DNA of 48,458 nt from Acidobacteriota bacterium. Lineage in GTDB: Bacteria > Acidobacteriota > Blastocatellia > Chloracidobacteriales > JADJPF01. The notes beneath the pieces are model-generated. The model saw only the letters and a list, made by a program, of their open reading frames with translations, was not told the DNA's origin and searched no databases. The position numbers and the translations under genes are program-made. Of this stretch, positions 24,842 through 25,050 are shown in pieces; position 1 is the stretch's first letter; each line of letters begins with the position of its first letter. Where the stretch lies: positions 1 through 48,458 of the forward strand of contig JBFLVQ010000003.1 of NCBI GenBank assembly GCA_040758525.1. Direction: 5' to 3'.

Positions 24842-25050
24842 CGCTCGCGTGCAAGTTGCTGGAGCGAAGTGTACGTCATTAGACAGTAGCTCCGCCGGTC
24901 TGTTTTTACACACTTTTTAAAGGATGGCTACTTCTAAGCCCACCTACCGGGTTCTCTGCATCTGCCTCACTTCACACCCACTGTTTTTTACAGCGGTACT
25001 ATTCCTCTCGTACTAAGTATGTATGCTCCCACGGTTGGGGCACGCGAGCG
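24842..25050 (-). ncRNA. Putative Y-RNA-like ncRNA 2 carrying 23S rRNA mimics (sarcin-ricin loop plus H42-H44)
   Basis: Perfect 11-bp terminal stem CGCUCGCGUGC/GCACGCGAGCG. Internal UACU-UAGUACGAGAGGAAU-AGUA (24997-25019). Internal CCGGUAGGUGGGCUUAGAAGUAGCCAUCCUUUAAAAAGUGUGUAAAAACAGACCGG (24895-24950). Scaffold shared with ncRNA 1. Confidence 0.75.

Follow-up and report, generated by a model that had tools for sequence, protein, structure and literature searches.

An RNA from an Acidobacteriota contig that joins copies of the sarcin-ricin loop and the GTPase-associated centre of 23S rRNA on a Y-like scaffold

A 48,458-nucleotide stretch of DNA from an Acidobacteriota bacterium (positions 1 to 48,458 of contig JBFLVQ010000003.1, assembly GCA_040758525.1; hereafter the window) carries, in a gap between two open reading frames (ORFs), a short sequence that reads like the 23S rRNA sarcin-ricin loop (SRL), which raises the question of what a piece of the ribosome is doing there. 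The SRL hairpin is one arm of an RNA of about 205 nt and not a stand-alone element, a point missed by the initial annotation of the locus, and the same RNA also holds a copy of the 23S rRNA helices H42-H43-H44, which are the GTPase-associated centre (GAC). With a probability of roughly 0.65, we read the whole as a Y RNA that has, in place of its tRNA-like module, an imitation of the ribosome's factor-binding site; it would belong to a mobile island and serve as a decoy or sentinel.

Two pieces of 23S rRNA in one small RNA

On the minus strand, positions 25019..24997 spell UACUUAGUACGAGAGGAAUAGUA, exactly as the initial annotation had it. The motif is intergenic, again as stated there, since it lies in the ~250-nt gap from the stop of the ORF at 25067..25894(-) to the ATG at 24817 of the ORF at 23981..24817(-). 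Likewise, the window was correctly said to hold no rRNA operon: none was found at the Rfam gathering score, the sole RNA match there being a tRNA (48273-48346). The 12-nt SRL core, AGUACGAGAGGA, was the only match in the window with at most one mismatch. Its chance expectation is 0.14 matches, with at least one match in 12 of 100 shuffles, and the 12-mer considered by itself is just mildly improbable. Alignment to H95 of genuine 23S rRNA, as proposed in the initial annotation, revealed 100% identity over 13-14 nt (blastn), with the core being identical in the 23S rRNA of one same-order relative and of two cyanobacteria; the positions mapped to 2666/2667, beside the core, differ from real 23S rRNA.

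On the ribosome, the SRL and H42-44 form the binding site for translational GTPases, H42-44 being the other half of this factor-binding site besides the SRL. The copy of H42-44, which is also the L11/thiostrepton site, was found 75 nt downstream of the SRL copy on the same strand. A permissive Rfam scan aligned 24969..24880(-) with positions 1073-1163 of LSU_rRNA_bacteria (42.6 bits, E 1.3e-11), and further scans yielded up to 48.4 bits (E to 3e-12, model positions 1071-1167), all of these scores (42.6-48.4 bits) staying below the Rfam gathering score of 50. Compared to real 23S rRNA, the GAC copy showed 74-85% identity over 40-69 nt (blastn). The order of the two elements is permuted, as the SRL is located 5′ of the GAC here, whereas in real 23S rRNA the GAC lies near position 1100 and the SRL near 2650, ~1,570 nt further 3′. 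A 23S gene or fragment would be colinear with 23S rRNA and reach the LSU gathering score, and this RNA does neither; the hallmarks of a factor-binding-site mimic, namely the SRL core, the H43/H44 pairing and the 1072/1092/1099 base triple, are all present. It further differs from the 23S factor-binding site in that both elements are joined in one small RNA and have other closing stems. A third rRNA match, to 23S positions ~110-137 (E 1-10), was treated as chance.

Conservation and covariation of the RNA

Relatives were sought among species-representative genomes with a pattern consisting of the SRL core followed, 60-90 nt further, by the GAC motif. At least 119 stretches fitted this pattern, nearly all of them in Cyanobacteria (Microcoleus, Nostoc, Oscillatoria, Moorena, Calothrix, Anabaena and others), and the non-cyanobacterial loci listed were two Obscuribacterales metagenome-assembled genomes (MAGs) and one MAG labelled Actinomycetota. 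The copy in the latter (L072) is embedded in a tRNA array, and either mis-binning or a transfer beyond Cyanobacteria is possible. Culturable carriers include Microcoleus vaginatus, Calothrix brevissima NIES-22, Moorena producens 3L and Dolichospermum flos-aquae CCAP 1403/13F. BLAST over 40 relatives returned one homologue, in a same-order relative of the host (G010; 76% identity over 156 nt), where it lies within a run of 14 tRNA genes. The RNA also occurs, unannotated, on two cyanobacterial plasmids; the plasmid search did not return the Anabaena 7120 plasmid. No stretch with the pattern was present in the viral contig collection, and the matches from the phage collection were confined to the GAC part (short unannotated records and one phage record) and are not family members.

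The 119 pattern copies were aligned (alignment A1) and assigned a structure composed of the Rfam H42-44 pairing and the family helices P1, P2, SRL stem, P3 and P4. RNAalifold mis-paired H43/H44 on A1 and a brute-force helix scan was too noisy because of the conserved columns, so that the Rfam-derived structure was used instead; lower H42 has two plausible registers, of which only the Rfam register was counted. In this structure, 96.5% of the 5422 cells are standard pairs and 29 of the 47 pairs have changed on both sides, although A1 is dominated by closely related Microcoleus genomes, so that cell counts overstate the number of independent events. None of 500 shuffles reached these pairing or covariation values, and slid controls paired in 35-51%. 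The RNA is non-coding and, with such pairing and compensatory changes across 119 copies, bears out the selection on structure that had been proposed from the window copy.

A less biased check was obtained with covariance model R1, which found 12 full-length copies in sampled genomes (in 11 of 151 evenly drawn cyanobacterial genomes, including a centre genome chosen as carrier) and scored the window RNA at 188.3 bits (E 1.5e-65). By its sequence and fold, the window copy has an 11-bp terminal stem (25050..25040 with 24852..24842) followed by UUUUA; its single-sequence fold was not significant alone (z = -1.74). The SRL 12-mer stands at the equivalent position in the 119 aligned homologous RNAs, but the search pattern demanded this, as it imposed the invariance of part of the GAC. 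In the R1 copies, it was likewise exact in 12 out of 12, five of which fail the GAC part of the pattern, indicating that conservation of the SRL core goes beyond chance. The motif is thus kept at homologous loci; its absence from them is what the initial annotation had named as speaking against its proposal.

The SRL stem itself is conserved rather than co-varying: just UAC/GUA is kept across the family, and none of its three pairs has changes on both sides. The initial annotation had inferred selection from a stem that differs from that of 23S rRNA yet remains paired. While UACU/AGUA is indeed paired in the window copy, this argument fails within the family, because the SRL stem shows no compensatory change and the covariation sits in other helices. 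Similarly, the 4-bp stem described there exists here, but its fourth pair (U-A) is peculiar to this copy, and the reported 15-nt loop length fits this copy but is no family constant, as copies differ by 1-3 nt in the loop's 5′ flank.

In the GAC of 23S rRNA, C1072, C1092 and G1099 form a base triple, according to the part of PMC8614978 that deals with it. Following the E. coli numbering assigned from that account and the Rfam alignment, the corresponding columns 162/182/192 of A1 read U/U/A in 110, C/C/G in 5, C/U/A in 3 and G/U/A in 1 of the 119 copies, so that the pair and the third base of the triple mostly change together, and the triple is mostly U/U-A rather than the C/C-G of 23S rRNA. 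The columns mapped to A1067 and A1095 (157 and 188) hold A in 89 and 112 of the 119 copies, respectively, and the window copy has A at both. Judged from these sequences, the tertiary-fold signature of the GAC is kept.

Some copies depart from the common form. The two Obscuribacterales copies (L030 and L074) are the most divergent members seen, with a ~15-nt insertion just after the SRL core (A1 columns 50-70) and an H44 closer to real rRNA (C/C-G triple). A recurrent GG-to-CC change at A1 columns 202-203, on the 3′ side of the H42 junction and with no obvious compensation, was seen in nine loci (L029, L048, L055, L096, L101, L105, L118, L122 and L125). One full-length member (L168 2001-2269, G122:C23; 269 nt, 162 bits) contains a ~60-nt insertion in lower H42, and its genome has an ordinary second copy. 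Another apparently full-length R1 match, of 53 bits (L169), proved to be a piece of real 23S rRNA.

These data bear on the most trivial explanation of the locus, namely a decaying 23S fragment, an assembly chimera or a chance match. The host MAG (10.3 Mb, 1250 contigs) has no assembled 23S rRNA, this locus being its sole LSU-like match, and the 12-mer alone has a modest chance expectation. Against this stand the permuted order of SRL and GAC and an architecture conserved in at least 119 loci with compensatory changes. Moreover, copies are no closer to the 23S rRNA of their own host than to foreign 23S rRNA (74-85% identity), and carrier genomes have intact full-length 23S genes, from which it follows that the RNA is old and separately evolving. 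The data contradict this explanation, to which we give practically no credence, and the view of the initial annotation that the motif is not a decaying rRNA fragment is upheld.

A Y-like scaffold beside a Ro60-like gene

Y RNAs and their protein partner Ro60 are conserved from bacteria to humans. In the description given by the relevant sections of PMC4201824, Y RNAs lie beside Ro60 genes, have a long terminal stem with the Ro60 site and, in bacteria, mimic tRNA; characterised members measure 80-130 nt, and few were found in cyanobacteria.

The window RNA starts 854 nt downstream of the stop of a same-strand gene for a 482-aa protein, whose relatives begin at the second Met (477 aa) and whose sequence contains a DKSGS motif. 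An AlphaFold2 (AF2) model of this protein, built on a 27-sequence alignment, reached a pLDDT of 78.7 and a pTM of 0.71. In a Foldseek search of the PDB with this model, the top 12 listed chains were all Ro60/Rsr/TROVE proteins (E 9e-11 to 7e-8, TM 0.56-0.66, ~490-540 aligned columns), including D. radiodurans Rsr and Xenopus Ro bound to Y RNA, and these full-length fold alignments cover both the TROVE ring and the von Willebrand factor A (vWA) domain with its MIDAS motif. At the sequence level, Pfam reported just vWA, below the cut-off, and phmmer against PDB TROVE-domain chains gave a weak match (E 0.023). Relatives were numerous (3070 at E<=1e-5 among 8000 scored), the top 120 being 72-80% identical and mostly cyanobacterial. 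The predicted fold suggests that the protein is a divergent Ro60, and we refer to it as Ro60-like; the window RNA is thus encoded beside a probable Ro60/Rsr orthologue.

This proximity recurs elsewhere. Among the 151 cyanobacterial genomes, 11 have the RNA, 11 the Ro60-like protein, 10 both and 139 neither, in a sample that includes the carrier-chosen centre genome and whose related members are not independent of each other. Seven of the 10 genomes with both have the RNA and the Ro60-like gene on one contig, 1-57 kb apart.

Weaker R1 matches (21-37 bits, 74-270 nt) formed tandem clusters near Ro60-like genes and tRNA arrays. The match of this kind at 27406-27542 of the window combines a hairpin resembling a T arm, GGUUCGAGUCC, with a segment resembling a D arm; Rfam YrlA did not match it at E<=1. 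Comparison of 19 elements revealed common 5′ and 3′ ends made up of P1, a conserved bulge in its 5′ strand, P2 and a UACAYAC linker, between which the cargos differ, being T-arm/D-arm-like, whole-tRNA-like, minimal, or SRL plus GAC. The siblings are 74-184 nt long (one is 270 nt) and mostly have tRNA-like cargo. Across scaffold elements, P1 pairs in 97% and P2 in 99%, both with compensatory changes, in an alignment that was fitted to the R1 model and so favours the structure, and whose 28 rows include the real-23S piece L169. A long stem joining the 5′ and 3′ ends, as expected of a Y RNA, was found in all comparisons of P1 and P2 (95-99% pairing, with compensatory changes). The conserved 5′ strand reads G-Y-G-N-C-C-Y-A-A, with a 3-nt bulge opposite ACUUG. 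Minimal elements of 74-77 nt (L171 2902-2975; L168 3723-3799) hold little beyond this common scaffold, which can apparently stand alone.

We also considered the RNA as a miniature domain VI of 23S rRNA, with P2 as H94, P3 as a truncated H96 and H97 swapped for H42-44, on the basis of a 29-nt match (E 0.005) and a common CCGCUG motif. This idea was rejected, since tRNA-like siblings that lack an SRL have P2 and the UACAUAC linker as well, which assigns both to the Y scaffold.

Compared to known bacterial Y RNAs (YrlA, RF02553; Yrn1; bound by Rsr/Ro60), the RNA is alike in its place beside a Ro60-type gene, in the long stem of its 5′ and 3′ ends with a conserved bulged region, and in a modular cargo that mimics an RNA of the translation apparatus, the tRNA-like siblings matching RF02553 below threshold. 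It is unlike them in that this cargo is 23S H95 plus H42-44 instead of a tRNA, in its lack of an Rfam Y-RNA match, in the location of most copies in tRNA arrays, in the divergence of its Ro60 partner and in its operon partners, p278 and a ThiF-like protein, where the Salmonella Y-RNA operon has RtcB/RtcA.

Genomic setting and possible role

Of the 119 pattern copies, 86 (72%) are located within same-strand tRNA arrays, 65 of these directly after tRNA-Arg; such loci have a median of 22 tRNAs per locus of 8 kb or less, none antisense. Another 21 loci have an operon like that of the window, with the RNA directly upstream of p278, and the remaining 12 are in other settings. In its same-strand membership and its preferred slot after tRNA-Arg, the RNA behaves like a member of the long tRNA arrays known from strain PCC 7120, unlike whose members it is not a tRNA; the window copy lies outside any array. 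According to PMC8421152, long tRNA arrays spread by horizontal transfer, respond to translational stress and, in Anabaena, are induced when translation is impaired.

The features of the window are collected in Table 1. On the minus strand, the operon runs from the sibling RNA (27542..27406) through the 482-aa vWA protein, p275, the rRNA-like RNA, p278 and the ThiF/E1-like gene to two PilZ genes.

Table 1. Features around the RNA, in positions of the window
Feature	Position	Strand	Remark
Whole structured RNA, rRNA-mimic Y-type, ~205 nt	24842..25050	minus	Covariance-model core 24847..25048
Copy of 23S H42-H43-H44, GAC (L11/thiostrepton site)	24876..24971	minus	Rfam LSU_rRNA_bacteria
P3 spacer hairpin between SRL arm and GAC arm	24978..24996	minus	Compensatory changes at all 5 pairs (columns 71-75/96-100)
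SRL (23S H95) copy	24997..25019	minus	Core AGUACGAGAGGA at 25014..25003; stem UAC(U)/(A)GUA
p275, accessory protein, uncharacterised family	25067..25894	minus	Homologue in 3/120 oriented loci
p278, conserved protein	23981..24817	minus	Directly downstream of the RNA in the operon form
ThiF/E1-like adenylyltransferase, 213 aa	23329..23970	minus	Last conserved operon gene
Ro60-like protein, putative TROVE ring and vWA with DxSxS MIDAS motif, 482 aa	25904..27352	minus	Predicted fold
Sibling Y-like RNA, tRNA-like cargo	27406..27542	minus	R1 21.2 bits, E 2.3e-6; just upstream of the Ro60-like gene

Homologues of p278 (53-64% identity) occur in 17 loci; the protein matched no Pfam, NCBIfam or PADLOC family, and its models were poor (AF2 pLDDT 48.3, the Atlas model being poor too). 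The ThiF-like protein is better defined (Pfam ThiF 9.3e-30, NCBIfam ThiF 2.9e-28, PADLOC E1-E2 9e-15) and has homologues in 12 loci. For p275, the Atlas model reached a pTM of 0.91, with uncharacterised relatives only and BPL_N among its nearest structural neighbours. The two tandem PilZ-domain genes (134 and 136 aa; 22447-23267, minus strand) lie directly downstream of the ThiF-like gene, and tblastn detected no PilZ homologues beside the RNA in other loci. Elsewhere in the window, an ORF at 29803-31197(+) has a long histidine-rich low-complexity stretch near its N-terminus. A promoter and terminator scan of the window returned fewer sites than in shuffles, and the promoter-like site was not above chance. 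The sequencing runs listed for the window include no RNA run, a blank that is evidence neither for nor against transcription, and one DNA run matching a small share of sequence words (0.07).

Because the RNA directly precedes p278 in the window and in 21 of the 119 loci, it might be a cis-regulatory leader or processing signal for p278-ThiF, resembling the rRNA-mimicking leaders of ribosomal proteins. What follows it is p278 and ThiF, or tRNAs, and not the ribosomal-protein operon that an r-protein leader would precede. Moreover, the 86 array copies lie between tRNA genes without a downstream ORF, and both the closed terminal stem and the scaffold, which Y-like RNAs that stand alone have too, suggest a discrete RNA acting in trans, making a cis-acting role very unlikely.

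The island looks horizontally acquired, since its Ro60-like protein has relatives of 72-80% identity that are mostly cyanobacterial, whereas host GlmM has its best named relatives in Acidobacteria/Blastocatellia at just 53-61% identity. On a second island of the same host (G000:C381:1-6000), three Y-like RNAs in tandem (2403-2875) lie between a run of at least 20 tRNAs (3700-5534, minus strand) and a Ro60-like gene (928-2364) with 72% identity to that of the window; no copy of the rRNA mimic was found on the 6 kb examined. Three siblings give sub-threshold matches to Rfam YrlA (36.6-42.4 bits, where 69 is the gathering score).

How, then, might such an RNA work? By analogy with known Y RNAs, P1 with its 5′-strand bulge and P2 would be the constant scaffold that docks on the neighbouring Ro60-like ring, while the ~150-nt module that replaces the tRNA-like cargo would present the SRL (H95) and the L11/L10-binding H42-44 side by side. 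The RNA would be part of a horizontally mobile island comprising the long tRNA array, tRNA-like Y RNAs, the Ro60-like gene, p278 and the ThiF/E1-like gene. Its module may be recognised by whatever recognises the ribosomal GTPase centre, candidate ligands being SRL-cutting or H44-modifying toxins, of which some depend on EF-Tu, thiopeptides and possibly uL11, stalk proteins and GTPases. As a decoy or sentinel, the RNA could thereby draw off or signal attacks on the translation apparatus. Toxins that target tRNA might be met likewise by the spare tRNAs and the tRNA-like Y RNAs beside it, and damaged RNA would be dealt with by the Ro60-like protein and its partners.

We favour a decoy or sentinel role for several reasons. 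Firstly, tRNA arrays are mobile and the Anabaena array is induced under impaired translation (PMC8421152, as above). Secondly, a single toxin family, the VapCs, attacks either the SRL or tRNAs, as VapC20 cuts the SRL and other VapCs cut tRNAs, according to the portion of PMC5175351 on these toxins. Thirdly, attackers of both halves of the site have been described: the widespread SRL nuclease SRLase1 cuts the SRL and needs EF-Tu (bioRxiv 10.64898/2026.09.18.752725), and Tre23, a toxin of the type VI secretion system (T6SS), ADP-ribosylates H44 (PMC8661411). A bait combining the SRL with the stalk base would suit such factor-dependent attackers.

Several observations weigh against this reading. 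Lower H42 and the outer H44 pair contain mismatches in the window copy. In A1, the invariance of the SRL and part of the GAC stems from the search pattern, and the dominance of Microcoleus, noted above, lowers the weight of the pairing counts. No YrlA or Y_RNA match was obtained on the rRNA-mimic RNA (at E<=10 over 24700-25200 and at E<=1 over 21500-30500). At ~205 nt and with an rRNA-like cargo, it has neither the size nor the tRNA module of characterised Y RNAs. Its conserved 5′ strand resembles, without matching, the published Ro60-binding motifs (vertebrate GGUCCGA, bacterial GNCGAAN0-1G; motif section of PMC4201824). Pfam TROVE did not match the Ro60-like protein at E<=0.01, and the Ro60 assignment depends on a predicted fold whose confidence is moderate (pLDDT 78.7, TM 0.56-0.66). 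Furthermore, no Ro60-like gene was seen in one of the 11 genomes that carry the RNA, and 80 of the 119 copies lie in arrays without such a gene within the 8-kb locus.

The same structural evidence would also suit a tether or adaptor, whose module binds its normal ligands (free uL11, the uL10-bL12 stalk, EF-G, EF-Tu or other GTPases) and brings the Ro60-like ring and associated enzymes to ribosomes, 50S intermediates or factors, for 23S quality control or decay and not as a toxin decoy. There is a precedent in that a bacterial Y RNA tethers Rsr to PNPase and Rsr takes part in 23S maturation (tethering section of PMC4201824). By itself, however, a tether leaves the embedding in horizontally spreading supernumerary tRNA arrays (PMC8421152, main points) unexplained, and family scans of the conserved operon revealed no PNPase or other nuclease gene; we regard it as doubtful, if the most serious competitor of the decoy or sentinel. 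Less probable again is an antibiotic sponge, in which GAC-like RNA made in excess, alone or together with uL11, sequesters thiopeptides of the thiostrepton/micrococcin class and the SRL is secondary. It would fit the retained H43/H44, including the columns mapped to A1067 and A1095 and the base triple, as well as the induction of Anabaena tRNA arrays by translation inhibitors (PMC8421152, main points), but leaves no role for the strictly conserved SRL (12/12 copies), the Ro60-like protein, p278 or ThiF, and stoichiometric titration of a drug by RNA is costly, which makes it improbable.

A bolder version of the decoy or sentinel reading, which we put forward tentatively as distinctly less likely than its basic form, is that the RNA would be a 'miniature GTPase centre' of natural origin that acts in trans. 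Its two arms, SRL and L11 stalk, would reproduce the docking site and load uL11, stalk proteins and EF-Tu/EF-G, acting as bait for factor-dependent ribotoxins, H44-modifying toxins or thiopeptides, and the Ro60-like ring together with the E1-like enzyme would register any damage to the RNA. If so, Y RNAs in general would be sentinel mimics, tRNA-like or rRNA-like, carried with spare tRNAs on a mobile 'translation back-up' island.

Synthetic RNAs containing the SRL and the thiostrepton domain ('ribosome-in-pieces') are laboratory constructs that bind EF-G. The RNA described here consists of the same two rRNA elements outside the ribosome, but is natural, covalently joined and conserved. Our literature searches retrieved no description of it, although supplementary files, which these searches do not cover, could hold one, and Rfam 15 has no family for it. 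Word searches in the main texts of two tRNA-array papers (PMC8421152 and PMC10272220) found no mention of the element, and those in the bacterial Y-RNA paper PMC4201824 found no description, though the supplementary tables of PMC8421152 and PMC4201824 could mention array contents or cyanobacterial Y RNAs. We infer that a Y RNA with an rRNA-mimicking rather than a tRNA-mimicking module is apparently undescribed.

The variable module of this RNA is an unmistakable copy of the ribosomal factor-binding site. As it stands beside tRNA-like siblings and spare tRNA arrays, it leads to the testable idea that what Y-RNA modules copy are those components of the translation machinery at which toxins and antibiotics strike. 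The RNA would be a natural case of SRL and L11-stalk RNA working outside the ribosome and could serve as a small model for work on the docking of GTPases, the binding of thiopeptides and toxins directed at the SRL. Finally, it extends the long tRNA arrays, which help Anabaena survive translational stress, by a member that is not a tRNA and had been overlooked.

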